Of a stretch of 51,022 bases of DNA, positions 8,350 through 40,677 are shown one piece after another. The notes below the pieces were generated by a model. That model saw nothing but the letters and a program-made list of their open reading frames with translations, was not told the DNA's origin and ran no database searches. A program made the translations under genes and the position numbers. Origin of the DNA: Polyangia bacterium (GTDB taxonomy: Bacteria; Myxococcota_A; Polyangia; Fen-1088); the NCBI GenBank assembly GCA_038325725.1, contig JBBQJG010000003.1:1-51022 (forward strand), written 5' to 3'. Position 1 is the stretch's first letter. Each line of letters starts with the position of its first letter.

Positions 8350-11300
8350 ATGAACATAGACGTCTCGAACGCCCTCGCGACCCTCCAGCTGGATCCCGAC
8401 AACGCGCCGGCGCGGAAGACGCTGGCCGCCGCGCGCGCCACGGGGGCCGACACGGACCTCGACGTCGAGGCGCTGACCCTCGCGCTCGGGGACGCCCGGC
8501 GCTGGCACCGCGAGCGCGGCTCGTTCGAGCTCGCCCTCCAGCTCATCGACATCGAGCTGCCGTGGATCAAGGACGCGGGCCGACGCGCCGACCTGCTGCA
8601 CGAAAAGGGGCGCATCCTCAGCGACGACCTGCTGCGCGGCGACGCCGGCCTCGTCGCCGTCCAAGAGGCCCTCGCCGTGCGCGCCGACCACGCCCCCTCC
8701 AAGGAGTCCTTGGCGCAGATGTCCCTGCTCAAGGGCAACTGGCAGCCGATCTCGAAGCGCTACCTCCAGCAGGCCGAGGCAGCCACCGACAAGCCGCACG
8801 CGGCGAGCCTCTACGTCTCGGTCGCCGAGCTCGTCCTCAAATACGGCGGCGCCGCGGGCGCGGCCGACGGCGAGGCGCACCTGCGCAAGAGCCTCGAGCT
8901 CGACCCCGGCAGCCGCCGGTCCAGCATTCATCTCGAGCGCCTGCTGCGCGAGGGCTCGCGCTACGACGAGCTGCTCGCGCTCTACGCCCGGCGCGCCGAC
9001 GCGGCGCCCACGCGCGAGGAGCGCGCCCTCGCCGAGATCCTCGCGGGCGAGACGTCTGCAAAAGTCGGTAAGGAAGCCGAGGCGCTCGCCCACTTCCGCA
9101 AGGCCCTCGACGCGACGCCGTTCGAAGCGCGCGCGCTGCGCCCCGTGCGCGACGCGCTCACGAAGCGCGCCGGGCAGGGCGATGGCACCGCGTGGGGCGA
9201 GCTCGCCAAGGTGCTCGAGACGGCCGTGCGCACGAAGCGCGGCGAACAAGACATCCCGCTCCAGGTCGAGCTCGCGTTGGTCCTCGCGACGCGCCTCGAT
9301 CAGGCGGACGCCGCCGAGGTGTTCTTCCGCCGCGTGCGCAAGCTCGAGCCCGCCAACCACGACATGATCGAGTTCTACCGCGGCTACCTCGGCGCGAAGA
9401 ACGACCCGGGGCAGCTGCTGCAGATTCTGGCTCAGGCGCAGAAGAGCGAGACGGACGTCGATCGCCGGATCGAGATGGGCGCCGAGATGGCGCGCGCCGC
9501 CGAGGCGCGCCCGCAGAGCGCCGAGAAGGCCATCGAGATCTGGAAGGGCCTGCTGCGCCTGCGTCCCCGCCTGCCCGAGGCCGTCGCCTCGCTCAAGCGG
9601 CTCTACGCCAAGACCGAAAAGTGGAACGCGCTGCTCGAGATCCTCAAGGACGACCTCGAGTCCTTGCCGGCCACGGCCCAGGGGAATGACGATAGGGTCG
9701 CGCGCCTCTTGGAGGTCGTCGCGATCTACCGCGACCGCCTGAACCTCGACGTCATGGTGGTCAACACGTACTTGAGCGTCCTCGCGCTCAAGCCCGACCA
9801 CCCCGACGCCCTGACGGCGCTGTCGGCGCGCTACGAGGCGCAGGGGCGCTGGAACGATCTCATCACGGTGCTCGGCAAGCAGGCCGACGTCGCCACCGAG
9901 CCGGCGCAGCGGCTCGCGCTTCACCGGCGCATCGCGGGCCTCTGGGCCGACAAGCTCGGCAAGCACGCGAACGCCGTCGCGAGCCTCGAGAAGATCCTCG
10001 AGGCCGAGCCTCAGGACGCCGAGACGAGCGCGCGCCTCAAGGACCTCTACGCGAAGGGCCGCCAGTGGCGCCCGTTGCTCGACGTCTACCGGCGCGAGCT
10101 GCCCCAGCTCGCGGGGCAAGCGCGCCGTCCGCGCCTCATCGAGATGGCGCGCGTCGCGGGCGATCGCCTCAACGACGTGCGCGAGGCGCTCAACCTGTGG
10201 AACCAGGTCCTCGCCCTCGCGCCGCTCGACCCGGACGCGCTCGCCGGCTTGGCCACGCTCTACGAACGCGAGCGACGCTGGCCGGCGCTCGTCGAGATCC
10301 TCGAGCGCCAGCGCCAGAACGTCGAGGGCAACGCCGCGGCCGAGCTCGTGCTGCTCGAGCGGCGCGGCGTGCTGCTGTACGAAAAGCTCGGCGCGACCGA
10401 CGGCGCCATCGACGTCTTCCGTCGCATTCAGGTCCTGCAGCCGCAGAACCCGCGGGCCGCGCGCGCCTTGCGCGAGATCTACGCGCAGTCGGGCGACATC
10501 GCGTCGCTCGAGGCGATGTACGTCCAGCAGGGGGCCTTCACCGACCTGTGCGATCAGCTCACGTCGCTCGCGGACCGCACGGCCGACGTCGCGGCGCGCA
10601 CGCGCCTGCTCGAGCGCGTCGCCGATCTGTCGCTCACGAAGCTCAACCAGCCCGAGCGCGCGCTCAAGGCCTACGAGCGCATCCTCACGACCGACCCGAA
10701 CAACCGGCGCGCGGCGCTCGCGCTCGTGCCTCTCTACCGCCAGGCGCAAAAGTGGCCGCGCCTGCTCGCGACGTACGAGGTGCTCCTGGGCTCGTCCACG
10801 GCCGGCGAGGCCGTGGGCCTCACCGAGCGCCTCGAGCTGCTCACCGAGGCGCGCGCCATCTGCGAGCAACGCCTCGGATCGAAGAGCCTCGCGTTCCAGT
10901 GGGCGGGCCGCGCCTTCGAGGCCGCGCCGAAAAACGACACCGTGCGCGCCGACATCGAGCGGCTCGCCGGCGAGGCGGACGAGTGGGGCGCGCTCGCGGG
11001 CCTGTACGCCAAGCGCGCCGACGCGACGACCGACGCCGAGGAGCGGCTGTGGCTCCTGCGCCACGCGCTCCGCGTCAACCTCACGAAGCTGTACAAGCCC
11101 GTCGAAGCGCGCGCCTTCGCCGAGCGCATCGTCGCCGAGGTCGGCTACGACGAAGAAGCCGACGGTGCGCTCGAGCAGATCCTCACGCAGACGAAGGCGT
11201 GGCCCGATCTCGCGAAGCTGCTGCGCGTGCGCGCCGATCGCGCGCCCGACATCGCCGAGCGTGTGCGGCAGCTCTTCCGCATCGCCCAGCTCGAAGAAGA

Positions 11301-14300
11301 GCGCGTGGGCGACGTGGGGGCCGCGGCCGCGACCCTCGAAGCCATCACAGAGGCCGATCCCGTCAACGAAAAGGCGTTGAAGGCGCTCCAGCGTGTCTCC
11401 GAGGCGCGCCAGGACTGGCCGGGGCTCGTCGAGGCGCTTCGCCGCGAGCTCGCCGTGCGCGCGTCGGGCGGAACGCCCGCGCAAGAGACCGCGCGCGAGG
11501 AACTGCTCCTGCGCATCGGTCAGATTCAAGAGACGCGCCTGCCCGACCAGGCGACGCCCAACGTGGATGACGGGGCGCTCGCGACCTACCGCGAAGTGCT
11601 CGTCGCGAACCCGCAGAGCGCCGCCGCCGTCGCCGGCTTGGAACGGCTGCTGTCGTCGGGGCGCGCGAACGATGCGTTCGCTGAAATCGCCCAGCTCTCC
11701 CTGCCGTACTACGAGAAGACGGGAGACGCCGCCAAGCTCGCGGGCGCGCATGAGGCGCTGCTGACGGCGGCCGACACGCGCGGCGAGCGCGTCGATCGCC
11801 TCGAGCGCCTGCGCGCGCTGTACGCGGGGCCGCTCGCCGACGCGGGCGCCGCCTACCGGACCAGCCTCGCGCTGTTCGAGATCGATCCGTCCGACGCCGC
11901 GAACCGCGCGCAGCTCGTCGCGTTCGCGGGCGCCGCGAAGAAAACGGGGGAGCTCGTCGACAAGACGCGCGCGCTCGCGACGGCGAGCGAAGACGCGATC
12001 CTGCGCCGCGATCTCCTCATCACGATCGCCGAGCTCCAGGAGCGGAGCGCGGGCTCGGTGGGCGGCATTCGGGCCGACGTCGAGACGGCGTACGCCGACA
12101 TCATCGCCGTCGAGCCCCTCAACGACGCCGCGTTCAAGGCGCTGTCGCGCCTGTACCGCGAAGGCCCCCCTCCACGTTGGGCCGACCTGCGCGCGCTCTA
12201 CGAGGCGCGCCAGAACGCTTCACTCGATCCCCGCGAGCGGCTCGATCTGCTCGCGCAGACCGCCGAGCTCGACGAGACGTCGCTCAACGACGCCGCGCAC
12301 GCCGTCGCGACCTACGAAAAGATGCTCGAGCTCGATCCGGCGGACATGCGGGCCCACCGCGCGCTCGACCGTCACTACGCCGCCGCCGAGCGCTGGCGCG
12401 ATCTCGAAGAGCTGCTCGGGACGCGCGTCGCCTTCGCGTCGCCGGCCGAAGTCTCCGAGCTCGAGTTCCGGCGCGCCGACCTGCGCGCCACGCGCTTCGG
12501 CGACGTCGAGGGCGCGCTCGATCTCCTCGAGGAGATCGTCGCCAAGGCCCCGAGTCACGAGGGCGTGCGACGTCTGCTCGAGCGCCTGCTCGCGGGGACC
12601 GAGCACCGCCAGCGCGTCGCGCGCGTGCTGGAGCCGCTCTACGAGGCGGGCGGCGCGTGGGCGCGGCTCGTCACCGTCCTCGAGGTGCGCCGCGAGGCGC
12701 TCGGGCCGAGCGGCCCGGAGGTCGCCGCGCTGCTCGCGCGCATCGCCGATCTCCAGGAGAACAAGCTGCAGGCGCGCCCGGCCGCGCTCGCGACCTGGCG
12801 CCAGGTCCTCGAGGCCGACGCCGAGAACCCGGACGCGCTCGTCGAGATTGAACGGCTCGCGACGGCGCTCGAACGCTTCTCCGAGCTCGTCGAGGTCTAC
12901 CAGGAGCTCGCGGCACGCCGGGAGCAGAGCGACATCAGCGGGCGTGCCGACCTCCTCGGACGCGCCGCCAAGCTCCACGCGGGGCGCCTCGGCAACCGCC
13001 GCGCCGCGATCGAGTCGTGGAACCAGGTTCTCAACCTGGACGTCGAGAACTTCGAGACGGCGCGCCCGGCCGTCGCCGCGCTCGAGGCGCTGTACACCGA
13101 GACGGGCGACGTCGCGGCGCTCGTGAAGATCCTGCGCCTGCAGGCCGGGTGGGCCGACGGCGACGCCGACCGGAAGGCGATCCTGTTCCGCATCGCGAGC
13201 CTCGAGGACAAGTCGCTCGGCGACGCGCAGGCCGCCGTCGCGACGCTGCGCTCGATCCTCGAGATCGATCCTCAGGACCAGGCCGCCATCAGCGCGCTCG
13301 AGAAGATCTTCGAGGCGGGGTCGCAGCACACACAGCGGGTCGAGATGCTGCGCAAGCGCATCGACCTCGCGCAGGATCCGGCGGCGCGGCAAGAGCTGTG
13401 GCGACGCGTCGCGGGTCTGCTCGAGAACGATGTCGGCAACGTCGACGAGGCGATCTCGGCGTGCGTCGCGATCCTCGAAGAGAACCCCGAGGACGCGAAC
13501 GCGCTCGAGACGCTTGCGCGCTTGTATGAACAGCAGAACCGTCATCAGGATCGCCTCGAGATCCTCGAGCGTCGCCTCGCGCTCGCGCAGTCGCCCGCCG
13601 TCGCGCCCGCGCGCGCCGAGCTGCTGCGCCAAACGGCGTTGCTCTTCGAAGGCCCGCTCGGCGATCCCGCGAACGCGCTCGAACGGTGGCGCGAGGTGCT
13701 CGCCATCGTGCCGTCGGACGCGCAGGCGCTCACGGCGCTCGAGCGCTTCCTGCAGCCGGCCGTCGACGCCAACCTGCGCCTCGCCGCCGCGCACGCCCTC
13801 GAGCCGATCTACGAGCGCGCCGGCCGAAACGCCGAGCTCGCCGCCGTCGTCCAGGTCTACGTCGACGCCGAAGACGACGCCCGCGCGCGCCTCGAACAGC
13901 TGATCCGCCTCGCGGCGCTGCAAGAGACGAAGCTGCGCGACGCCGAGGCCGCCTTCCGCACGACGGCGCTCGCCGTGCGCGCTGGTTTGTCCGAGCCCGA
14001 GCTGCCGAGCTTGCTCGACAGCTACGAGCGCCTCGCGGGCGCGGCGCGCGCCGCCGACGTCGGCAGCTTCTATCGAGAGATCAGCCCCGACGTGCTCGAC
14101 GAAGAGGTCAAGCTGCGGCTCGATCGCTTCATCGCCGACGCGGCCCGCACGACCGGCGATCGCGAGACGGCGGCCGACTACTACCGCCGCGTCCTCGACC
14201 GCCTGCCCGAGGACGAGGCCGCGCTCGCGGCGCTCGACAAGCTCACCCGCGAGACGAACGACGTCCCGGCGCTGTGCGAGATCCTCGCGCGCCGCGCCGA

Positions 14301-17300
14301 CATCGCCCGCGACGTCCGCGTCGACCCGACGGCCGAGCACCGCTTCCGCTCGCAGCTCGGCCAGCTCTCGGAGCTGCCGCTCGGCCGCCTCGAAGACGCC
14401 ATCGGCGCCCACGAGCGCGTCATCGAGCTGCAGCCGCAGGATCGCGAGTCGCGCGAGGCGCTCGATCGCCTCTACACGCAGACCGAGCGCTGGGCTGACC
14501 TCACGCGCTTCCTCGAGGACACGCTCACGCGCGGCGGGCTCGCCGAGCGCGACCTCGTCGGCATCCGCTTCCGCCTCGCGCAGATCGAAAACGACCGTCA
14601 GTCCGATCGCGAGGCCGCGCTCGGCCACCTGCGCGTCGTGCTGCAGGGCGATCCCGACCACCCGGGCACGATCACGATGCTCGAGGGCATGCTCGACGAC
14701 GTCGGCGTGCAGAGCGCCGCCGCCCAGCTGCTCGAGCCCGTGTACGCGGGCCGGGCCGACTGGAAGCAGCTCATTAAAATAGGCGAGATCCGCCTCCTGC
14801 AGGTCGACGACCCCGCGGAGCGCGTCGGCTGGACGAAGCGCATCGCGCGCCTTTATGAAGAGCAGCTCGAGGACTACGAGAATGCGCTTCGCTGGTATGG
14901 CAAGGTGTTCCAAGAGGCGCCGACTGAGCGCCAGAGCGCCGAGCCGCTGTTGCGCCTCGCCGATCGCCTGAACCGCTGGCAAGAGGTCGGCGCGCTGTTC
15001 GCCGGGTACGCCGCCGACGAGCTGTCCGATGAACCCGTCGTGCTCGAGATCGTCCGCCGTGCCGCGGAGATCTACGACCTGCGCCTCTCGGATCGCGACG
15101 AAGCGCGCAAGCACTACCGGCGTCTTTTCGACGCGCTCCCCGACGACAAGGCCGTCGTGGCCCTTTACGAAGGCGCCCTCGAACGCTGGGAGGCCTGGCT
15201 CGACCTGCGTGAGCTCGTCGACGAGCAAGCGGGGCGCGCCCTCGACCCGGCGACGAAGCTCAAGCTCCTGCGCCGCAGCGCCAAGCTCGACGAGGAGAAG
15301 CTCGACAACCGCAGCCGCGCCATCGGCACGCTCCAGGAAGCGATTGAGCTCGACCCGACGAACCGACTGACGGGCGAGCCCGCGACAGACGCCGAGCTCG
15401 AACGCCTGCTCGGCGCCGAGGAGCTCTGGTACGACTTGGGCGATCACCTCGCCGCCGTGCTCGGACGCGTCACGGAGCCCGCCGAGCGCGACGCCGTGAC
15501 GTTCCGGCTCGCGGAGGTGCTCGAGAAGAAGGTGGGCGACGTCGCGGGCGGCGTCGATCGCTACGCCGAGATCGTCGAGCGCTCGCCGCGCCACCGCGAG
15601 GCCGTCGCCGCGCTCGAGCGCATCGCCGCCGATCCCGATCACCGCCACCGCGTCGCCGTCGTGCTCGAGCCCGTGTACCGGAGCGCGGGCGACTGGGGCA
15701 AGCTCGTGGGCGCGCTCGAGGCGCAGCTCGACACCGTCGAGGATCCCACCCAGCGGGTCACGATCCTGCGCGAGATGGCCGACATCTATCAGCGACTCGG
15801 CCGCCTCGACCTATCATTCGAGGCGCGCAGCCGCGCGTGGCTCGTCGACGTCAGCTCGGCGGAGACCCTCGGTGAGATGGAGGCGCTCGCCGTGTCGGCG
15901 CGCCAGTTCGCGCCGCTCGTGGCGACGCTGCAGACGGGCGCCGTCGAGGCGAACGATCCGGATCTTCAGGCCCAGCTGTGGGGCCTGTCGGCGCGGCTTC
16001 TCGAAGAGAACGTCGGCGACGTCGCCCAGTCGATAGAGGCGTGGCGTTCGGCCTTGAGCGCGCGGCCCGACGACCTCGACGCCTTCTCGGCGCTCGAGCG
16101 CCTGCTCTCGCAGGCGGCGCGTCCCGCGGAGCTCGTCGACGTCCTCGAGAAGCACTTCGAGGTCACACCCGACGCCAGTGTCGAAGAGAAGAAACTCATC
16201 GGCAAGCGCATCGCCGTTCTCCACGAGGACGCGCTCCGCCAGCCCGAGCAGGCCCAGCGCGCGTGGGAGACCGTCCTCGACATCGACGCCAATGACATGG
16301 AGGCGCTCGAGGCGCTCGGCCGCCTGCACGCGGCGGCGGGCAACCACCGTGACCTCGCCGAGATCTCCGAGCGCAAGCTCGCGCTCATCGAGGTGCCGTC
16401 GCAGCGGCGCATCGCGCGCCTCGAAGCAGCCCGCCTGTACGACGAGCACCTCGGCGAGGCGGACCTCGCCGTCGGGCACCTGCGCGCCGTCCTGGACGAA
16501 AGCTCGGACGACGCCGCGGATCCGCAGGCGCTGGCGCACCTCGACGCGATCTTCACGCGCGACGAGCGGCACGCCGATTTGCTCGAGGTGCTCGACGCGC
16601 GCGCCGGCGCGGCGCCGACACCGGCGGCGCGCGACGAGCTCGCGCTGCGCGCGGCGCACGTCACCGAGACGGATCTCTCCGACGTCGAGGCCGCGATCGG
16701 CCGCTATCAGAAGATCCTCGACGCGTCGCCGGGCCAGCCGGGCGCGATCGAGGCGCTGTGGACGATCGCGCGCGGCGCCGACTACCGCATGCCGGCCATC
16801 GCCGCCTTGGAGCCCGTGTTGCGCGCCGCGCGCGACTGGGCGGGCGTCGTCGACCTGCTCGAGCTGCGCCTCGCGGCCGAGGACACGCCGCCCACGCGCA
16901 TCGCGACCCTCGCCGAGATCGCGGCGATCGAAGAGCGCGAGCGCCGCGACACGAAGGGCGCCTTCGCGGCCTGGGCGCGCGCCCTCACGGAGGACGCGAC
17001 CGAGGACGCGCCGCGCGCCGCGCTCGAGCGCCTCGCGACGGCGACGGGCGACTACGCGGGCCTCGCGAGCGTCTACGCCGAGCGCATGGACGCGACCTTC
17101 GACGCGTCCCTCCAGCGCAGCCTCGCGCTGCGCCTCGCGGAGCTCCACGAGACGCAGCTCGCCGATCCGGCGCGCGCGGGCGAGTACCTCCGCCAGGCGC
17201 TCAACCTGCCCGGCGACGAGGCCCCCGTGCTGGCCTCGCTCGAACGCGTGCTGCGCGCGCAGGACGCCCACGCCGACCTCGCCGAGATCCTCGCGCGGCA

Positions 17301-19725
17301 GGCCGAGATCGCCGTCGATCCCGTCGCGCAGGCCGACTTCCTCACGGCGCTCGGCGAGACACGGCTGCGCGCGCTCGACGACGCCGAGGGCGCGCTCGGC
17401 GCCTACCGCGACGCGCTCGAGCGGAACCCCGCGCAGGCCGCGGCGCGCGGCGCGCTCGCCGAGTTGCTCGACCGCGACGAGACGCGCGAGAGCGCCCTCG
17501 AGATCCTCGAGCCGATGGCCGAGGCGCGCGGCGACTACGAAGAGCTGCTGGGCCTGTACGAGGTCCGCGTGGGCCTGCGCGACGATCGCACCGAGCGCGC
17601 GCACTGGCTGCGCAAGATCGCCGAGATCTGCGACGCGAACCTGGGCGACGCGCGGCGGGCCCTCGACGCCCTCGGCCGCGCGCTCGAGGCGGAGCCCATG
17701 CCCGGCGGCGCCGTCGACGATCTCGAGCGCATCGCGGGCGCGGCGAAGCTGACGCCGCTCGCGGCCCAGAAGATCGAGGCCGTGCTCGATGCCGCTGAGC
17801 CCGACGCCGCCAAGGACCTTTCCTTGCGCGCCGCGCGCTTGTACGAGACGGCTCCCGCGGATCTCGCGTCAGCCGAGCGGCTCTACTCGCGCGTCCTCGA
17901 GGCGGACGCCGAGAACGTCGACGCGCTCACGGCGCTCGAGAATCTGTACCGCGGCGTCGGCGCCTCGGGGACGGCGCACCTCGCGGCGATCCTCGAGCAG
18001 CGGGGCGCGATCGATCTCGACCCGCAGGCGCGCAAGCGTCGGCTCGCCGAGGCGGCCAAGCTGCATGAACAGCGCGGAGACACCCCCGCCGCGCTCGCGA
18101 CCTGGCAGAAGCTGCGCACGAGCGAAGAGGGCGACGCGGACGCGCTCGACAACCTCGCGCGCCTCCACGAGGCGTCTGGCCAAGCGGCCGAGCTCGTCGA
18201 CGTGCTCGCCGAGCGGGCGCGGTTCAGCGAGAGCCCCGTCGAACGGGCGGCGCTGTGGGCGCGCGTCGGGGCCTTGCGCCTCGGGCCGCTCGGCGACGTC
18301 GACGGCGCCGCGGACGCGTACCGCGAGGCGCTCGAGGGCGCGCCCGACGACGCGACGTCGCTCGGCGCGCTCGAAACGATCGAGGAGCGTCGCGAGGATT
18401 GGTCGGCGCTCCAGGAGGTGCTGCAGCGCCGCCTCGGCACGACCGAGGGCGCCGCGCAGATCCCCGTGCTGCTCAAGCTCGCGAAGAACGCCGAGGCGCG
18501 CCTGTCCGACACGGACCAGGCGAGCGGCTACCTGCGCCAGGTGCTCGACGTCGACGCCGCGAACGGGCTCGCGTATCTGGAGCTCGAGCGTCTTCTTCGC
18601 GCGGGGGAGCGCTGGTACGACCTCGTCGAAGTGCTCGCCAAGCACGCGGACGTCGAGGCGACCGCGGGCCGCAAGCCGACGGAGCTCGCGCTGCGCGTCG
18701 CCGTCGCCGACGTCTGGGAGCAGCAGCTTTCGTCGCCCGAGAGCGCGGTGGAGGCGCTCGAGAAGGTCCTCGAGGTCGCGCCGACGAACGCGCCGGCGCT
18801 CCTGTCGATGGCCCGCATTCACGAGGGCGCCGAGCGGTGGGACGAGGCGAGCGCCGCGCTCGCGCGCGCCGCCGAAACAGCGACGGGGGGCCCCGAGCTC
18901 GCCGAGATCCACTACCGCGGCGCCCAAATCTTGAAGGCCAAGGACGCGCCCGCCGACGAGGTCGAGGCGCTGCTCCTGCGCGCGCTCGACGCCTCGACCG
19001 AGCACCTGCCGACGCTCGAAGCGCTCGAAAAATCGGCGCGCGCCGTCAAGGACGACGAACGGCTCGTGCAGATCCTCGAGCTGAAGCTCGAGGTCGTCAC
19101 GGCGCGGGACACGAATGCCAAGAAAGACGACGAGCGCAAGCTGCTGTCCGAGATCGCGGGGCTGCAGAAGAAGCTCAAGCGTCAATCGCGCGCCGTGCCC
19201 GTCCTCGAACGGCTCGTCGCGCTCTCGCCGACGGAGATCGAAGGCCGCGGCGATCTCGCCGACGCGCTCATCGCCGCGGGCCGCACGGGCGAAGCCGTCG
19301 GCATCGCGCGCGAGCTCATTGAGCAGCTCACGAAGGCGCGCCGGGGCAAGGAGGCGTCGTCGTGGTACCAGCGCCTCGGCGCGATCGCGGTCGCCGACGG
19401 TGACCTCGTGGTCGCGGGCGAGCACTTCAACGCCGCCTACAAGCTAGACCCGGGGCACCCGCTCACGCTGTCGTCGCTGGGGCGCCTGTCCTTCGAGCGC
19501 GGCGACTTTGACAGCGCGCGCAAGTTCTACCGGTCGTTGTTGCTACAAACGTTCGACGAGTCGTCGACGGGGGTCTCGAAGGCCGAGATCTACTTGATGC
19601 TGGGGCGCATGCACGTCTCGGCCAAGGAGATCCCGAAGGCGCGCAACATGTTCGAGCGCGGCCTCGAGACCGACCCGAAGAACGAGCTGCTCAAGCAGGC
19701 GCTCGCGCAGCTGCCGAGAAATTGA
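8350..19725 (+). CDS. Giant (3791 aa) tetratricopeptide-repeat protein, AgmK/GltI-like gliding-motility family
   Basis: Uninterrupted 11.4-kb ORF with host codon usage. Dozens of degenerate TPRs (L..DP....AL..LERLY.....W..L), the architecture of myxobacterial AgmK-type proteins; orthology not established. Confidence 0.75.
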   Translation: MNIDVSNALATLQLDPDNAPARKTLAAARATGADTDLDVEALTLALGDARRWHRERGSFELALQLIDIELPWIKDAGRRADLLHEKGRILSDDLLRGDAGLVAVQEALAVRADHAPSKESLAQMSLLKGNWQPISKRYLQQAEAATDKPHAASLYVSVAELVLKYGGAAGAADGEAHLRKSLELDPGSRRSSIHLERLLREGSRYDELLALYARRADAAPTREERALAEILAGETSAKVGKEAEALAHFRKALDATPFEARALRPVRDALTKRAGQGDGTAWGELAKVLETAVRTKRGEQDIPLQVELALVLATRLDQADAAEVFFRRVRKLEPANHDMIEFYRGYLGAKNDPGQLLQILAQAQKSETDVDRRIEMGAEMARAAEARPQSAEKAIEIWKGLLRLRPRLPEAVASLKRLYAKTEKWNALLEILKDDLESLPATAQGNDDRVARLLEVVAIYRDRLNLDVMVVNTYLSVLALKPDHPDALTALSARYEAQGRWNDLITVLGKQADVATEPAQRLALHRRIAGLWADKLGKHANAVASLEKILEAEPQDAETSARLKDLYAKGRQWRPLLDVYRRELPQLAGQARRPRLIEMARVAGDRLNDVREALNLWNQVLALAPLDPDALAGLATLYERERRWPALVEILERQRQNVEGNAAAELVLLERRGVLLYEKLGATDGAIDVFRRIQVLQPQNPRAARALREIYAQSGDIASLEAMYVQQGAFTDLCDQLTSLADRTADVAARTRLLERVADLSLTKLNQPERALKAYERILTTDPNNRRAALALVPLYRQAQKWPRLLATYEVLLGSSTAGEAVGLTERLELLTEARAICEQRLGSKSLAFQWAGRAFEAAPKNDTVRADIERLAGEADEWGALAGLYAKRADATTDAEERLWLLRHALRVNLTKLYKPVEARAFAERIVAEVGYDEEADGALEQILTQTKAWPDLAKLLRVRADRAPDIAERVRQLFRIAQLEEERVGDVGAAAATLEAITEADPVNEKALKALQRVSEARQDWPGLVEALRRELAVRASGGTPAQETAREELLLRIGQIQETRLPDQATPNVDDGALATYREVLVANPQSAAAVAGLERLLSSGRANDAFAEIAQLSLPYYEKTGDAAKLAGAHEALLTAADTRGERVDRLERLRALYAGPLADAGAAYRTSLALFEIDPSDAANRAQLVAFAGAAKKTGELVDKTRALATASEDAILRRDLLITIAELQERSAGSVGGIRADVETAYADIIAVEPLNDAAFKALSRLYREGPPPRWADLRALYEARQNASLDPRERLDLLAQTAELDETSLNDAAHAVATYEKMLELDPADMRAHRALDRHYAAAERWRDLEELLGTRVAFASPAEVSELEFRRADLRATRFGDVEGALDLLEEIVAKAPSHEGVRRLLERLLAGTEHRQRVARVLEPLYEAGGAWARLVTVLEVRREALGPSGPEVAALLARIADLQENKLQARPAALATWRQVLEADAENPDALVEIERLATALERFSELVEVYQELAARREQSDISGRADLLGRAAKLHAGRLGNRRAAIESWNQVLNLDVENFETARPAVAALEALYTETGDVAALVKILRLQAGWADGDADRKAILFRIASLEDKSLGDAQAAVATLRSILEIDPQDQAAISALEKIFEAGSQHTQRVEMLRKRIDLAQDPAARQELWRRVAGLLENDVGNVDEAISACVAILEENPEDANALETLARLYEQQNRHQDRLEILERRLALAQSPAVAPARAELLRQTALLFEGPLGDPANALERWREVLAIVPSDAQALTALERFLQPAVDANLRLAAAHALEPIYERAGRNAELAAVVQVYVDAEDDARARLEQLIRLAALQETKLRDAEAAFRTTALAVRAGLSEPELPSLLDSYERLAGAARAADVGSFYREISPDVLDEEVKLRLDRFIADAARTTGDRETAADYYRRVLDRLPEDEAALAALDKLTRETNDVPALCEILARRADIARDVRVDPTAEHRFRSQLGQLSELPLGRLEDAIGAHERVIELQPQDRESREALDRLYTQTERWADLTRFLEDTLTRGGLAERDLVGIRFRLAQIENDRQSDREAALGHLRVVLQGDPDHPGTITMLEGMLDDVGVQSAAAQLLEPVYAGRADWKQLIKIGEIRLLQVDDPAERVGWTKRIARLYEEQLEDYENALRWYGKVFQEAPTERQSAEPLLRLADRLNRWQEVGALFAGYAADELSDEPVVLEIVRRAAEIYDLRLSDRDEARKHYRRLFDALPDDKAVVALYEGALERWEAWLDLRELVDEQAGRALDPATKLKLLRRSAKLDEEKLDNRSRAIGTLQEAIELDPTNRLTGEPATDAELERLLGAEELWYDLGDHLAAVLGRVTEPAERDAVTFRLAEVLEKKVGDVAGGVDRYAEIVERSPRHREAVAALERIAADPDHRHRVAVVLEPVYRSAGDWGKLVGALEAQLDTVEDPTQRVTILREMADIYQRLGRLDLSFEARSRAWLVDVSSAETLGEMEALAVSARQFAPLVATLQTGAVEANDPDLQAQLWGLSARLLEENVGDVAQSIEAWRSALSARPDDLDAFSALERLLSQAARPAELVDVLEKHFEVTPDASVEEKKLIGKRIAVLHEDALRQPEQAQRAWETVLDIDANDMEALEALGRLHAAAGNHRDLAEISERKLALIEVPSQRRIARLEAARLYDEHLGEADLAVGHLRAVLDESSDDAADPQALAHLDAIFTRDERHADLLEVLDARAGAAPTPAARDELALRAAHVTETDLSDVEAAIGRYQKILDASPGQPGAIEALWTIARGADYRMPAIAALEPVLRAARDWAGVVDLLELRLAAEDTPPTRIATLAEIAAIEERERRDTKGAFAAWARALTEDATEDAPRAALERLATATGDYAGLASVYAERMDATFDASLQRSLALRLAELHETQLADPARAGEYLRQALNLPGDEAPVLASLERVLRAQDAHADLAEILARQAEIAVDPVAQADFLTALGETRLRALDDAEGALGAYRDALERNPAQAAARGALAELLDRDETRESALEILEPMAEARGDYEELLGLYEVRVGLRDDRTERAHWLRKIAEICDANLGDARRALDALGRALEAEPMPGGAVDDLERIAGAAKLTPLAAQKIEAVLDAAEPDAAKDLSLRAARLYETAPADLASAERLYSRVLEADAENVDALTALENLYRGVGASGTAHLAAILEQRGAIDLDPQARKRRLAEAAKLHEQRGDTPAALATWQKLRTSEEGDADALDNLARLHEASGQAAELVDVLAERARFSESPVERAALWARVGALRLGPLGDVDGAADAYREALEGAPDDATSLGALETIEERREDWSALQEVLQRRLGTTEGAAQIPVLLKLAKNAEARLSDTDQASGYLRQVLDVDAANGLAYLELERLLRAGERWYDLVEVLAKHADVEATAGRKPTELALRVAVADVWEQQLSSPESAVEALEKVLEVAPTNAPALLSMARIHEGAERWDEASAALARAAETATGGPELAEIHYRGAQILKAKDAPADEVEALLLRALDASTEHLPTLEALEKSARAVKDDERLVQILELKLEVVTARDTNAKKDDERKLLSEIAGLQKKLKRQSRAVPVLERLVALSPTEIEGRGDLADALIAAGRTGEAVGIARELIEQLTKARRGKEASSWYQRLGAIAVADGDLVVAGEHFNAAYKLDPGHPLTLSSLGRLSFERGDFDSARKFYRSLLLQTFDESSTGVSKAEIYLMLGRMHVSAKEIPKARNMFERGLETDPKNELLKQALAQLPRN

Positions 19726-34426: not shown

Positions 34427-35413
34427 ATGAACGAGCGCGAGCGCCTCGCGGCCCGGCGCGCCGCGCTCGAGGCCCGCTCGCGCATCCTGCGCGGCGCGCG
34501 GGCATGGTTCGAGGGGCAGGGGTTCCTCGAGGTCGAGACGCCCGCGCGCGTGCGCGCGCCCGGCCAGGAAATTCACCTCGACGCGATCCCGAGCGGGCAG
34601 GGCGCCGCCGGTGACCCGCGCTGGCTCATCACGTCGCCCGAGTACCACATGAAGCGGCTGCTCGGCGCCGGCTTCCCGCGCATCGTGCAAATCGGCAAGG
34701 CGTGGCGGGCAGGGGAGGTCGGGCCGCACCACCAGCCCGAGTTCCTCATGGCCGAGTGGTACCGCGCCGACGCGCCGCTGTCGGCGATCGCCGACGACTG
34801 CGAGGCGCTCGTCCGCGTCGCGGCGGAGGCGGCGCTGGCCATCCCCGCGGGGCTCGACCTCGGGGGCCCGTTCGAGCGGACGACTGTGCGCGAGGTGCTG
34901 CGCCGGTATGCGGGCCTCGAGCTCGACGGAGACGAGACGACGGCCGCGCTCGCCGACAAGGCGCGCGCCGTGGGCGTCGCGACGAGCGCACAGGCGAGCT
35001 GGGACGACGTCTTCTTTCAGGTGTTCCTCGACAAGGTCGAGCCGGAGCTCGGACGCGGGCGCCCGACGTTCGTCTTCGATTGGCCCGCGCCGCTCGGCGC
35101 GCTCGCGCGCCGGCGCAACGATGATCCGCGCCTTGTCGAACGCTTCGAGCTCTACGCGAACGGCCTCGAGCTCGCGAATGCCTTTGGCGAGCTGACCGAC
35201 GCCACCGAACAGCGCGCGCGCTTCGTCGAGGAATCCGCGACGCGCGCGCGCCTCGGCAAGACGGTCTACGCGCTCGACGAGAAGCTGCTGGCGGCGCTAC
35301 CCCACATGCGTCCCTCGGCGGGCGTGGCCCTCGGCCTCGATCGCCTCGTCATGCTGGTCACGGGCGCGCCCGAAATCCGCGACGTCATCGCGTTCGCCGA
35401 CGACGAGGTGTAG
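34427..35413 (+). CDS. epmA: EF-P lysine beta-lysylase EpmA (GenX/PoxA)
   Basis: FLEVETP, TSPEYHMKRLL, H.PEF.M.EWYR, ERFELY..GLELANAFGEL, GVALGLDRLVM; no anticodon domain; adjacent to efp. Confidence 0.95.
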   Translation: MNERERLAARRAALEARSRILRGARAWFEGQGFLEVETPARVRAPGQEIHLDAIPSGQGAAGDPRWLITSPEYHMKRLLGAGFPRIVQIGKAWRAGEVGPHHQPEFLMAEWYRADAPLSAIADDCEALVRVAAEAALAIPAGLDLGGPFERTTVREVLRRYAGLELDGDETTAALADKARAVGVATSAQASWDDVFFQVFLDKVEPELGRGRPTFVFDWPAPLGALARRRNDDPRLVERFELYANGLELANAFGELTDATEQRARFVEESATRARLGKTVYALDEKLLAALPHMRPSAGVALGLDRLVMLVTGAPEIRDVIAFADDEV

Positions 35414-35443
35414 CAACGACAGGACTCGATCGCCGAGTCGTTG
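35413..35443. terminator. Hairpin directly after the epmA stop (possible terminator or stabiliser)
   Basis: GCAAC...GACTCG-ATCGC-CGAGTC-GTTGC; no U tract. Confidence 0.3.
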
Positions 35444-35611
35444 CGGCGGTCCCCTCAGGCGAGGGACGATGGACCCGCCAGCCTCATCCATTGCGCAAGG
35501 CTCTCGGCGTGCTGCGGGGTCGGCGTCGAGGTCGGCTTGATCGCCAGGCCGTAGACCACGCGCTCCGGTGGTGCGGCAGGAGCAAGTCCGGCCCGGCGGA
35601 CCGGCTGCTTC

Positions 35612-35644
35612 ATGCAAATCTAAAATTCAATATTGGTTTTGCAT
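35612..35644. promoter_or_regulatory. 33-bp AT-rich imperfect palindrome (operator-like)
   Basis: ATGCAAATCTAAAATT-C-AATATTGGTTTTGCAT, 13/16 arm positions complementary. Confidence 0.5.
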
Positions 35645-35713
35645 CAGGTCGACGTTGTCGCTCGCATCTCCCTGGCTTCAGGCTCATGCGGTCTGTAGGC
35701 CCGCTCGCAGCTC

Positions 35714-35777
35714 CTGGTCATGCTCGTGCGTGCGCGACACCCGCGACGGCGTCGCGTTCGCTGACAACGAGGTCTGA
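35714..35777 (+). pseudogene. Displaced epmA 3'-end copy 2
   Basis: LVML(V) / frameshift / VRDTRDGVAFADNEV* versus epmA LVMLVTGAPEIRDVIAFADDEV*. Confidence 0.8.
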
Positions 35778-35931
35778 TCCGCGACACCAATGTCATGGCA
35801 CGGTTGGTCTCAGCGTCACGTTTTTGCGATAGCACGCTAGGACAGCCGGCCTCACTTAGGGACAGGGAGGCGCGTACCTTGCACCGGCAAAAGTCATGCT
35901 GACCCCAGTGATCGTGTCCGTCCGTGTCGTG

Positions 35932-36627
35932 ATGCGAGCTTGTTGCGTGTTCACTATCGCTCTACTCGGCCTCGTGCTGGCCGTGGATTGCGGCGGCACT
36001 GAGGCGAAGACGTGCAGGGACCCAGGCGGGGTCGTTCATCCAAGCGGCCAGACCTGGATGCAGGACTGCGCGGTGTGTTCCTGCGGTGATCTGGGCGACG
36101 GGAAGCTCACAGCGATATGTGGCCACGTTGCATGTCTGCTCGACGCATCGGCGGAGGGCGCAGATGCAAAACGCATGGACGCCGCAGAAACCAGCGATCA
36201 CCCCACAGAAGACCATCCTCCGGCAGATGCCCACCCGCCAGAAGACTCCGCGACCACGGACGCTACGGGAACCAGCGATCACCCCGCAGAAGACCATCCT
36301 CCGGCGGATGCCCACCCGGCAGAGGACTCCGCACTGTGCCAGTCGCTCGCGATGGCCTATTACCAGGCCATCGCGGCGTCGAGCGTGTGTCAGCCCGACG
36401 CGGGGGCCGATCAATGCAAGGTTACGATCACAGAGCCGTCGAGCTGCCACTGCAAGGTGTTCGTGAACGGCGCGGCAGCCATTGATCAGCTGAATGCTGC
36501 CGCCAAGGAGTGGAACGATTCCGGGTGCGTTCACCAATGCCTGGGCGCCTGCGGCTTGCCCACCGGCGCGACATGCACGGCGAACTCCAACAGCCCGGCG
36601 ACCGGTACCTGCATCAATTCGATGTAG
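35932..36627 (+). CDS. Exported Cys-rich protein (possible lipoprotein) with a pacifastin/VWC-like N-module, duplicated His/Pro/Asp linker and Cys-rich C-domain
   Basis: Hydrophobic signal then DCGG; C-x17-C-xx-C-x-C-x11-C-x4-C with G.TW..DC; more A/T-ending codons than neighbouring genes; start 35932 or 35896. Confidence 0.65.
   Translation: MRACCVFTIALLGLVLAVDCGGTEAKTCRDPGGVVHPSGQTWMQDCAVCSCGDLGDGKLTAICGHVACLLDASAEGADAKRMDAAETSDHPTEDHPPADAHPPEDSATTDATGTSDHPAEDHPPADAHPAEDSALCQSLAMAYYQAIAASSVCQPDAGADQCKVTITEPSSCHCKVFVNGAAAIDQLNAAAKEWNDSGCVHQCLGACGLPTGATCTANSNSPATGTCINSM
36190..36332 (+). repeat. About 62-bp direct repeat, 81-bp period (TSDHP[T/A]EDHPPADAHP[P/A]EDSA x2)
   Basis: Read directly from DNA and translation. 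Confidence 0.9.
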
Positions 36628-36644
36628 GGCTTTCGATTCGTCGA

Positions 36645-36704
36645 CTCGTGCTCGGGGCGCAGGAGATCCGCGACTTCATCGCTTTCGCCGACGACGAAGT
36701 CTGC
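36645..36704 (+). pseudogene. Displaced epmA 3'-end copy 3
   Basis: LVLGAQEIRDFIAFADDEV-tgc versus LVTGAPEIRDVIAFADDEV-tag (16/19 aa identical); abuts the stop of the convergent TPR gene. Confidence 0.88.
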
Positions 36705-37118
36705 CTACGCCCGGTCGCGAACCCAGACCGCCTCTTTGCCCGTGAGCTTGTCGATCCACTTGGGCACGTCGTCGACGTGGCGGCCCGCGGGGAGGATCTC
36801 CAAGTAGCGGCCGATGGCGCTCACGGCGGCGACCCGATCGGCCGAAAGGCGCTCGGCCTGGCGCCGCAGGGCGAAGAAGAGCTCGTCGTCGATCGCCTCG
36901 GGATCGACGGCGCTCGCGCTCGAATCGAGGGCGAGCGCCCGCTCGTAGGCGGCGGCCGCCTCCTCGAAGCGCTCGAGCCCCGCGAGGGCTTGGCCCTGGT
37001 TGAAACACGCCTCAGGCTCGCGCGGATCAGCGCTGCTCTCCGCGACCGCGGCGTCGAGGGCCTCCTCGAATCGGCCTTCACCGCAGAGCTTCGTCGACCG
37101 CAACTGACCGTAAGCCAT
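36705..37118 (-). CDS. Small TPR protein
   Basis: GRFEEAL...DPREPEACFNQGQALAGLERFEEAAAAYERALALD; ATG 37118 preceded by TATGCT. Confidence 0.75.
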   Translation of the reverse strand: MAYGQLRSTKLCGEGRFEEALDAAVAESSADPREPEACFNQGQALAGLERFEEAAAAYERALALDSSASAVDPEAIDDELFFALRRQAERLSADRVAAVSAIGRYLEILPAGRHVDDVPKWIDKLTGKEAVWVRDRA

Positions 37119-37140
37119 GGGGGCGCAGCATAGCCCAACC

Positions 37141-39426: not shown

Positions 39427-40677
39427 ATGGCGGCCCAGAACCCCAATCAGAAGTTCTTCGAGATCATCCACCCGGGTGCGAAGTACGAATTCATCGGCAA
39501 GACCAAATACTGGGTCGCGCTGTCGATCTTCCTGACGTTGCTGACGATCGTCATGCTCCCGATCAACGTCGCGCGCCACGGGCACATGCTCAACTGGGGC
39601 GTCGACTTCCGCGGCGGCAGCGAGATCGTGATCCAGTTCTCGAAGCCGGTGGACGCGGGCGACGTCCGCAAGGCGCTCGCCGACATCCAGCTCAACGACG
39701 CCGACGTCGTGAAGTACGAGGATCCGTCCGGAAAGCACGCGTTCACCTTCATGATCCGCGCGGGCGCCGTCTCGGCGATCTCCGAGCCGCAGGCCAAGCA
39801 GCTCAAGGAAGCGATCGCCAAGGTCGGCGACGCCTCGCTCAAGCACTTCGAGTGGAACGAGGGCGGCGACAAGATCTACCTGCGCTTCGACAAGAACGTC
39901 GAGCCGACGACCCTCCAGACGTCGATCAAGGCGATCGGCGTCAACACGAACCAGGTGCAGCCGTTCGGCCGCTCCGAGGACCACACCTACGAGGTCACGC
40001 TCGTCGGCCTCGACACCGAGGTCCGCCGCGCCCTCGACGCACGCCTGGGGCCCGGCTCGGTCTCGGCGATCCCGCAGGTCGAGTCCGTTGGCGCCAAGGC
40101 CGGTAAGCAGCTGCAGTACGACGCGGCACGCTCGCTGATCTTCGCGATTCTCCTCATCATGGTGTACATCGCCTTCCGGTTCGACTTCCGGTATGGCCCG
40201 GGCACGGTGGTCGCGCTGTTGCACGACGCCGTCCTCGTCGTCGGAGCGTTCGCCGTCACGTACAAGGAGTTCTCGCTCACGACGGTGGCGGCGGTCTTGA
40301 CGATCATCGGCTTCTCGATGAACGACACGATCGTCGTCTTCGACCGCATCAGAGAGAACGCGGCGCGCCTGCGCGACCGCAAGTTCGACCGCGTCGTCAA
40401 TCAGTCAATCAATGAGACGCTGTCCCGCACGATCCTCACGAGCGCGACGGTCTTCTTCGTGACGCTCGCCATGAACGTGTTCGGCGTGGGCGTCATCCGC
40501 GACTTCGCCTTCGCGATGAACGTCGGCGTCATCGTCGGCACGTACTCGTCGATCTTCGTCGCGAGCCCGATCCTCATTTGGCTCAACGAGAAGTTCCTCG
40601 AGAGCCAGCGCCGCGCGCCGCTGCCGGGCAAGCCGAACCGCCGCAAGGCGGGCGACCTGCAGGCCGAAGAGCCATAG
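39427..40677 (+). CDS. secF: Protein translocase subunit SecF
   Basis: GVDFRGG, ALLHD, GFSMNDTIVVFDRIREN, TLSRTILTS, GTYSSIFVASP. Confidence 0.97.
   Translation: MAAQNPNQKFFEIIHPGAKYEFIGKTKYWVALSIFLTLLTIVMLPINVARHGHMLNWGVDFRGGSEIVIQFSKPVDAGDVRKALADIQLNDADVVKYEDPSGKHAFTFMIRAGAVSAISEPQAKQLKEAIAKVGDASLKHFEWNEGGDKIYLRFDKNVEPTTLQTSIKAIGVNTNQVQPFGRSEDHTYEVTLVGLDTEVRRALDARLGPGSVSAIPQVESVGAKAGKQLQYDAARSLIFAILLIMVYIAFRFDFRYGPGTVVALLHDAVLVVGAFAVTYKEFSLTTVAAVLTIIGFSMNDTIVVFDRIRENAARLRDRKFDRVVNQSINETLSRTILTSATVFFVTLAMNVFGVGVIRDFAFAMNVGVIVGTYSSIFVASPILIWLNEKFLESQRRAPLPGKPNRRKAGDLQAEEP

Follow-up and report, generated by a model that had tools for sequence, protein, structure and literature searches.

Three copies of the epmA gene end delimit two segments of foreign DNA in a Polyangia bacterium and may be scars of integration

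In Escherichia coli, prophage e14 and phage 21, which carry an integrase, occupy the 3' end of icd, where they supply a diverged, largely synonymous replacement end and leave the original gene end as a pseudo-tail on the far side. ICEs (integrative and conjugative elements) as well as IMEs (integrative and mobilizable elements) targeting gene 3' ends can integrate in tandem, accrete a second element at the same site and decay to integrase-less remnants flanked by attachment (att) sites, termed cis-mobilizable elements (CIMEs), as set out in PMC5704250. In this study we analysed a whole 51-kb contig (51,022 nt, JBBQJG010000003.1, contig C3; referred to as the window) of the metagenome-assembled genome (MAG) of a Polyangia bacterium (GCA_038325725.1; 5.66 Mb in 470 contigs, 69.6% GC, 6% contamination). 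In the window, the final ~70 nt of epmA, the intact gene for the 328 aa elongation factor P (EF-P) lysine aminoacylase EpmA (GenX/PoxA; 34427..35413, plus strand), are found twice more in direct orientation, between epmA and a convergent gene for a tetratricopeptide repeat (TPR) protein. The reading we prefer, to which we give about an even chance, is that Campbell-type and probably site-specific integration took place twice and that these copies are its inert, decayed scars, resembling tandem CIME remnants.

Copy 1 is the functional tail of epmA (35342..35413, plus strand) and would be attL-like, copy 2 (35712..35777, plus strand) would be attI-like and is a dead tail with a frame-breaking deletion and the TGA stop codon retained, and copy 3 (36628..36704, plus strand), the displaced and attR-like tail, carries small indels towards its 5' side and reads TGC at the stop position. 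A repeat search recovered the three as a single 49-nt direct-repeat family (35361-35409, 35725-35773 and 36652-36700), the largest such family between 34000 and 38000, the two extra copies each sharing 82% identity with the functional tail. A profile of the tail, for which the final 240 nt of epmA were taken from 19 relatives and this genome (243 positions, of which copy 1 covers 172-242), was run over the whole window and picked out 36634-36702 (E 2.5e-12) and 35712-35776 (E 4.6e-11), and a local alignment of the tail with the downstream DNA scored 61, against a mean of 19.2 (sd 2.1, maximum 25) for 200 shuffled sequences. The three tails, and the layout of gene with tail, segment, tail, segment, tail, are therefore as the first-pass annotation had them, while two of its details needed correction: the small deletion in copy 2 is frame-breaking, and copy 3 extends back to ~36628 with small indels. 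The next-best profile match in the window lies in secF (40355-40515, E 5.8e-6) and is a chance resemblance (peptide ...GVIRDFAFA...); it recurs in relatives, where it can mimic a distant tail copy. As a control, we looked at lysS, a paralogue on contig C6 whose blastn match to the tail is about as good (75% over 73 nt), owing to the conservation of motif 3 in class II synthetases; despite this similarity, the extra copies terminate in the EpmA-specific ...AFADDEV and ...AFADNEV. The functional protein itself belongs to the TIGR00462 equivalog family (340.4 bits versus a cut-off of 286.9, residues 14-323, near-full length) and aligns end to end with its relatives, with the conserved ...AFADDEV terminus kept.

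Both extra copies are dead, copy 2 being frameshifted (by a deletion of 1 nt in our alignment and of 5 nt in the profile alignment) and copy 3 having indels and no stop codon. Compared with copy 1, copy 2 shows nine non-synonymous and two synonymous codon changes in 17 codons, and copy 3 shows seven synonymous and three non-synonymous changes in the last 19 codons, the same count as was made in the first-pass annotation. If all change had occurred on a decaying copy, the synonymous excess in copy 3 would have P = 0.004. Copy 1 reads TGAPEIRDVI versus LGAxDIRDVV in the genus, whereas copy 2 carries the genus-typical states D and V, lies slightly closer to the G004 and L051 tails than to either of the other two copies, and has the epmA tail of G004 as its best outside match (81% over 65-70 nt, E 1.3e-11). 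Judged from these alignments, the 7:3 ratio and the genus states of copy 2 are suggestive of tails with a history as coding sequence in separate lineages or elements, and the mixed pattern of E and I versus D and V would fit lineage-adapted elements, as it would other histories. The left ends of copies 2 and 3 nearly coincide, at profile positions 172 and 173 of 243 (within ~15 nt by eye). Inverted repeats within these two copies are short, with arms of 10-14 nt (inverted-repeat search). A TPR-like sequence past the stop of copies 1 and 2 was considered and dropped, as it was weak after copy 1 (~20 nt, low posterior) and absent after copy 2.

The convergent gene downstream (36705..37121, minus strand) encodes a 138 aa protein with Pfam TPR_2 and TPR_1 matches and is a conserved neighbour of epmA, with orthologues adjoining epmA in relatives being 51-76% identical. 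The gene order efp-epmA, convergent TPR gene and then yajC is conserved. Loci from 7 genomes and 10 metagenome contigs were compared at the level of the genus, 17 in all (EpmA 74-84% identical). The gap between epmA and the TPR gene is only 2-13 nt in six of the 17 (G003, G004, G005, L045, L047 and L060) and still short in two others (76 nt in L050, 99 nt in L061), with a gene lying between the two in the other nine. In the window, copy 3 ends at 36704 and the stop codon of the TPR gene (CTA on the plus strand) occupies 36705-36707. Copy 3 is thus placed as the functional tails are in the abutting relatives, and by this comparison it marks the ancestral end of epmA, which had already been proposed from its abutting the TPR stop.

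The content of the gap varies among relatives, never with tail copies. A gene for a ~270 aa protein without a Pfam family, on the strand of the TPR gene, is found there in eight of the 17 loci (L026:2092-2913 in G001, and likewise in G002, G006, L046, L049, L059, L048 and L051), and the gap of G007 holds a 409 aa open reading frame (ORF) instead. The ORF in the gap of L062 is presumably HigA-like, judged from its sequence. The end of epmA is itself repeated on a small scale in some of these loci. In L061, the closest relative identified, with an EpmA 84% identical in the part present, the terminal 14 nt of epmA, stop codon included, are present in tandem in 5.1 copies with 98% matches (L061:482-552), an array followed by a GC-rich hairpin and then the TPR stop. 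A diverged 13-nt unit with the epmA end and stop codon is present three times in G006 (L027), L046 and L059, and as a single copy in the sister genomes G001 and G002.

The DNA between the copies is compositionally foreign. The 1.2 kb from 35414 to 36627 has a GC content of 63.8% versus a genome median of 69.6%, which places it in the lowest 3% of 4423 stretches of the same size from this genome, and the GC content at third codon positions (GC3) is 0.73 for its only gene, ORF243, versus 0.92 for epmA and 0.88 for the TPR gene. Segment 1 (35414..35711, ~300 nt) is debris without an intact gene. On its minus strand, 31 codons (35473..35565) remain from the interior of a DUF4143/AAA_14 ATPase gene and match residues 350-380 of a 410 aa relative; 16 of the 31 residues are identical to protein P0001 (tblastn, E 1e-9) and 17 of 31 to an ORF of G318, which in turn matches DUF4143 with 29.6 bits (cut-off 28.1). 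Full-length relatives are 399-411 aa long with PF13173 (AAA_14) and PF13635 (DUF4143) domains, and since only residues ~350-380 of the ~400 aa ATPase are kept, more than 1 kb of the gene, from its 5' part, must have been deleted, along with ~90 nt of the 3' part. Genome G318, from another genus of the family, has only a C-terminal 85 aa fragment of the same ATPase subfamily (L118:1408-1665), which is 90% identical to a 410 aa metagenome protein and is preceded by an AT-rich stretch. Segment 1 also contains an AT-rich near-palindrome of 33 nt (35612..35644; 16-nt arms, 81% complementary), where the GC content dips to 58.5%, the lowest of the region; it is located directly upstream of a 52 aa minus-strand ORF overlying the DUF4143 fragment, and its right half resembles, by eye, the sequence upstream of the G318 fragment.

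Segment 2 (35778..36627, ~850 nt, plus strand) has ORF243 as its single gene (35896..36627, plus strand), an orphan for which a Cys-rich, secreted product with a hydrophobic N-terminus is predicted. There were only weak Pfam matches to ORF243 (Pacifastin_I, below cut-off), no NCBIfam match, and no relative in either a 5.8-billion protein index or viral contigs. Of 300 other genomes of the class, 10 contain weak relatives of its C-terminal domain (E 2e-7 to 5e-4), and the ESM Atlas gave weak leads only (at most 0.84), to Myxococcota hypothetical proteins. Within the gene are two 78-nt direct repeats, 88% identical and 81 nt apart (36174..36332, plus strand), which encode an acidic His/Pro-rich linker that separates two Cys-rich parts. 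Neither segment has a further copy in its own genome, and a comparison of the insert DNA with 88 genomes of the family returned only the copy 2/epmA matches and the one 67-nt match to G318. Scans for promoters and terminators gave nothing above the level of shuffled sequence.

We propose that in an ancestor epmA ended where copy 3 now sits, stop to stop with the convergent TPR gene, and that foreign DNA would have entered the final ~70-80 nt of epmA by Campbell-type integration, each incoming piece bringing its own copy of the epmA end. As the incoming pieces carried gene ends, epmA would have stayed whole and would now use copy 1, and the earlier ends (copies 2 and 3) would have been pushed downstream, there to decay. 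The presence of three copies points to probably two events, or to one event by a donor already carrying an internal copy. The likeliest agents would be integrative elements that attach within the 3' end of epmA, arranged in tandem as attL - element A - attI - element B - attR, from which later internal deletions may have removed the recombination genes and most of the cargo, leaving the 31-codon gene fragment in segment 1 and the orphan gene in segment 2. Site-specific elements are favoured because of the similar left boundary, the foreign composition and the erosion of segment 1; a fixed attachment site would give pseudo-tails with a coincident left boundary, which random illegitimate joins would not be expected to do. 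An insertion that restores the gene and displaces its old end, as invoked in the first-pass annotation, fits this anatomy.

As in the tandem ICE/IME accretions and CIMEs described in PMC5704250 (e.g. those related to ICESt1/ICESt3), direct repeats of the target gene 3' end flank DNA without integration or transfer genes, the repeats resembling attL, attI and attR delimit two tandem units, and the target gene is intact. The epmA array differs in that no related intact element or integrase of this specificity was found, and its units (0.3 and 0.85 kb, one of them pure debris) are far smaller. The epmA repeats are only 77-82% alike and are decayed, and cis-mobilisation is therefore unlikely today. 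The far-side pseudo-tail is shared with e14 and phage 21, but unlike these prophages the epmA site keeps nothing phage-like and would have undergone two tandem events. The literature searched brought to light no connection between epmA and an integrase or attB site, and hence the target gene appears to be new, while the kind of event is known.

Several observations weigh against integration by site-specific elements. Small-scale duplications of the epmA end do occur in this genus, as in L061 and G006, and the site may simply be duplication-prone. Copies 1 and 3 share the states E and I, which are rare among the tails of 30 relatives and also fit a local origin, and against a model of local duplication with continued synonymous drift of the functional copy, the 7:3 excess of synonymous changes reaches only P = 0.06, so that the earlier proposal of copies derived from different coding alleles holds as a suggestion only. 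A core site is not recognisable, copies 1 and 3 sharing no exact stretch longer than 14 nt (by eye), and two independent deletions would both have needed to stop near the start of a tail. Finally, the intact parent element at the same att site by which a CIME is recognised was not identified in the collections searched, although absence from these is not proof, and neither an intact element, nor an integrase, nor an att-bearing relative was seen at epmA in any of them.

The same holds for the tails themselves, since no second tail was found at any of about 110 related epmA loci. The 29 loci of relatives taken from whole genomes had none, and in 70 metagenome loci the only tblastn matches to a second tail, in L080 and L082 (E 0.51, 39% identity), were rejected because the tail profile gave no confirmation. 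Neither was there a second tail in stretches of 3-20 kb downstream of epmA in six relatives without the TPR and yajC neighbours; the only extra profile match in these stretches, in L125, lies inside a long ORF, presumably that of IF-2, and is not a gene tail. A further 40 genomes of the family likewise lacked a second tail: 16 of the 40 loci gave weak second profile matches, all but one ~3.2-3.8 kb downstream, and the two checked (L145 and L150) fell within secF, the same match as seen in the window, while the second matches in L133 and L062 (profile positions 81-134) do not represent the tail end. No further tail copy was found in the genome itself, and no epmA tail in viral contigs. A phage collection returned 32 records with a match; all 15 matches listed cover at least 93% of the 80 aa query, and they were rejected as element-borne tails, as the annotated ones are whole genX, yjeA or lysU genes in records that look bacterial. 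The tail array is thus confined to this genome among the loci searched, and the variable, tail-bounded cargo expected of an insertion hotspot, which the first-pass annotation had raised for epmA, was not found; a hotspot or working system at the epmA end is not supported.

A recombinase domain was likewise looked for and not found in 28 ORFs of the window, in agreement with the first-pass annotation (a 3791 aa ORF at 8350-19725 lay outside the scan), and the two insert ORFs tested, ORF243 and the 52 aa ORF over the DUF4143 fragment, gave no recombinase match. Elsewhere in the genome there are seven Phage_integrase matches, all on other contigs; tyrosine recombinases are located on C183, C168 and C113. 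A genome-wide scan for gene ends paired with a downstream copy, a check suggested with the first annotation of the locus, returned 10 repeat pairs including epmA. At six inspected loci (C225, C195, C333, C242, C82 and C86; seven pairs) the second copy lies at the end of or within another ORF, and these were set aside as paralogues or repeat proteins; no displaced gene end besides epmA was confirmed, with C18 and C61 (180-331 nt at 68%) outside the inspection.

A different origin, possible although we think it rather unlikely, is that no mobile element was involved and that chromosome fragments of relatives, starting in the epmA tail, were inserted by host recombination, either by a single RecA crossover of a circularised fragment or by homology-facilitated illegitimate recombination anchored on epmA, with the tail duplicated each time. 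The lack of any trace of a recombinase or element gene is consistent with this, as is the resemblance of each unit to a chromosome piece consisting of tail, short spacer and neighbouring gene; the similarity of copy 2 to ordinary epmA tails of the genus would fit too, and the relatives with single genes in the gap (the ~270 aa protein at eight loci, the 409 aa ORF of G007 and the presumed HigA-like ORF of L062) could have served as donors. However, no DUF4143 gene or ORF243 relative is located beside epmA in the related loci examined, which leaves no plausible donor arrangement, and illegitimate joins would not be expected to give copies 2 and 3 so similar a left boundary. RecA requires far more than ~70 nt at 77-82% identity, so today's tails offer too little for a crossover unless they were near-identical at the time of insertion. 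In natural transformation, homology-facilitated illegitimate recombination similarly uses a one-sided anchor to admit foreign DNA beside a conserved gene without an element enzyme, but it usually deletes or replaces recipient DNA, versus the ~70 nt duplicated with a reproducible boundary at epmA.

We regard it as improbable that duplication came first, with ~70-100 nt of the epmA/TPR junction copied in tandem by slippage or template switching and unrelated DNA landing between the copies later. The tandem repeats of the same gene end in relatives (14 nt in 5.1 copies in L061, 13 nt in three copies in G006, L046 and L059) speak for such a process, and both the rare E and I common to the outer copies and the modest P value of the synonymous excess under this model are compatible with it. 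It would nevertheless take at least four events, including two insertions exactly between copies, and a simple vertical series does not explain why the middle copy has the D and V of the genus while the outer ones have E and I; Tandem Repeats Finder (TRF) also detected no tandem array in the window.

A broader form of the idea, in which the epmA-tail array exemplifies a wider, as yet undescribed route of gene acquisition, with modules of 0.3-4 kb that carry a host gene end and no recombinase of their own, are inserted by an enzyme acting in trans or by host recombination and repair, and are stacked twice at this locus, has in our view only a slim chance of being right. Slimmer still is the prospect of an active cassette platform, with the epmA tail as docking site for circles of tail plus cargo that are moved by a recombinase whose gene lies elsewhere. 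In its favour, two small units are delimited by three tails with similar boundaries, and the Phage_integrase matches on other contigs would supply tyrosine recombinases, but the docking copies are decayed by frameshift, indels and a lost stop, segment 1 is a gene fragment and not cargo, neither segment is copied elsewhere in the genome, none of the about 110 related loci has a second tail, and no other such array was confirmed in this genome. In contigs from an independent assembly of run X1, no joint across the insert was reported either, although contigs cannot exclude rare forms. The gene fragment in segment 1, the single tails of the related loci and the outcome of the genome-wide scan also leave the integron-like or orphan-module-like cassette array which the first-pass annotation had suggested without support. 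Integron arrays are similar in that short repeats part small units behind a fixed point in one orientation, but the epmA array is not an integron: it lacks intI (none by the array, 28 ORFs of the window scanned), attI and Pc, its repeats are coding gene ends and probably not attC hairpins, one of its units is geneless, and there is no array variation among relatives. Neither is it an array of rhs/cdiA orphan C-terminal and immunity modules. Those systems, too, accumulate old 3' ends downstream as new ones displace them, but they involve variable toxin domains and immunity genes under diversifying selection, whereas at this locus the main gene is EpmA, the tail is that of a conserved housekeeping gene, the displaced copies are dead and no toxin domains have been displaced.

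The assembly was checked against Logan contigs of run X1, the one run holding this stretch, which were assembled independently. They show 0 differences in two stretches, 35453-36093, which runs from segment 1 through copy 2 to segment 2, and 36417-37008, from the cargo through copy 3 to the TPR gene, and both pseudo-tail junctions therefore hold; as X1 is probably the source sample, this tests the assembler and not the biology. Among the Logan matches listed there was no spanning piece for 35269-35452, where the epmA stop runs into segment 1, or for 36367-36416. The Logan depth is 4.6-8.5 in the insert, 6.3 and 10.6 in the flanks and 2.3 at 35269-35452. The similar depth of insert and flanks, and the lack of differences in the pieces listed, suggest that the insert is fixed in the sampled population. 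Other contigs of X1 match the window only onward from 36647 (the start of copy 3) or 35318 (just before copy 1), with unlike sequence before these points, and could represent relatives or paralogues in the sample. That pieces of several organisms were strung together at a conserved epmA tail during metagenome assembly is very improbable, since the copies share at most 14 exact nt (by eye), too short for a k-mer misjoin, copies 2 and 3 are pseudogenes and not the gene ends of other organisms, and an independent assembler reproduced both pseudo-tail junctions, despite the 470 contigs and 6% contamination of the MAG and the thinly covered stretch at 35269-35452.

The surroundings of the array are of a housekeeping character, as judged from Pfam and NCBIfam matches. 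The efp gene is directly 5' of epmA, at the end of a series consisting of era, der, bamB, queA, tgt, a rhomboid gene, efp and epmA, followed by yajC, secD, secF and recJ, with nusA further away. The 3791 aa ORF, with a GC3 of 0.93, takes up one fifth of the window.

If small, tail-bounded inserts without a recombinase were to share one mechanism, the locus would matter more than as a single case, something which a single locus cannot show. Read as the eroded scars of integration, the array would be a clean example of a housekeeping gene taking up foreign DNA at its own end without being broken, and of insertions which stack and then erode to near nothing. It would also add epmA to the protein-coding genes whose 3' ends carry such an insertion scar, and it serves as a warning for annotation, in that lost elements can leave scars in the form of short extra gene ends and of orphan genes behind conserved ones.

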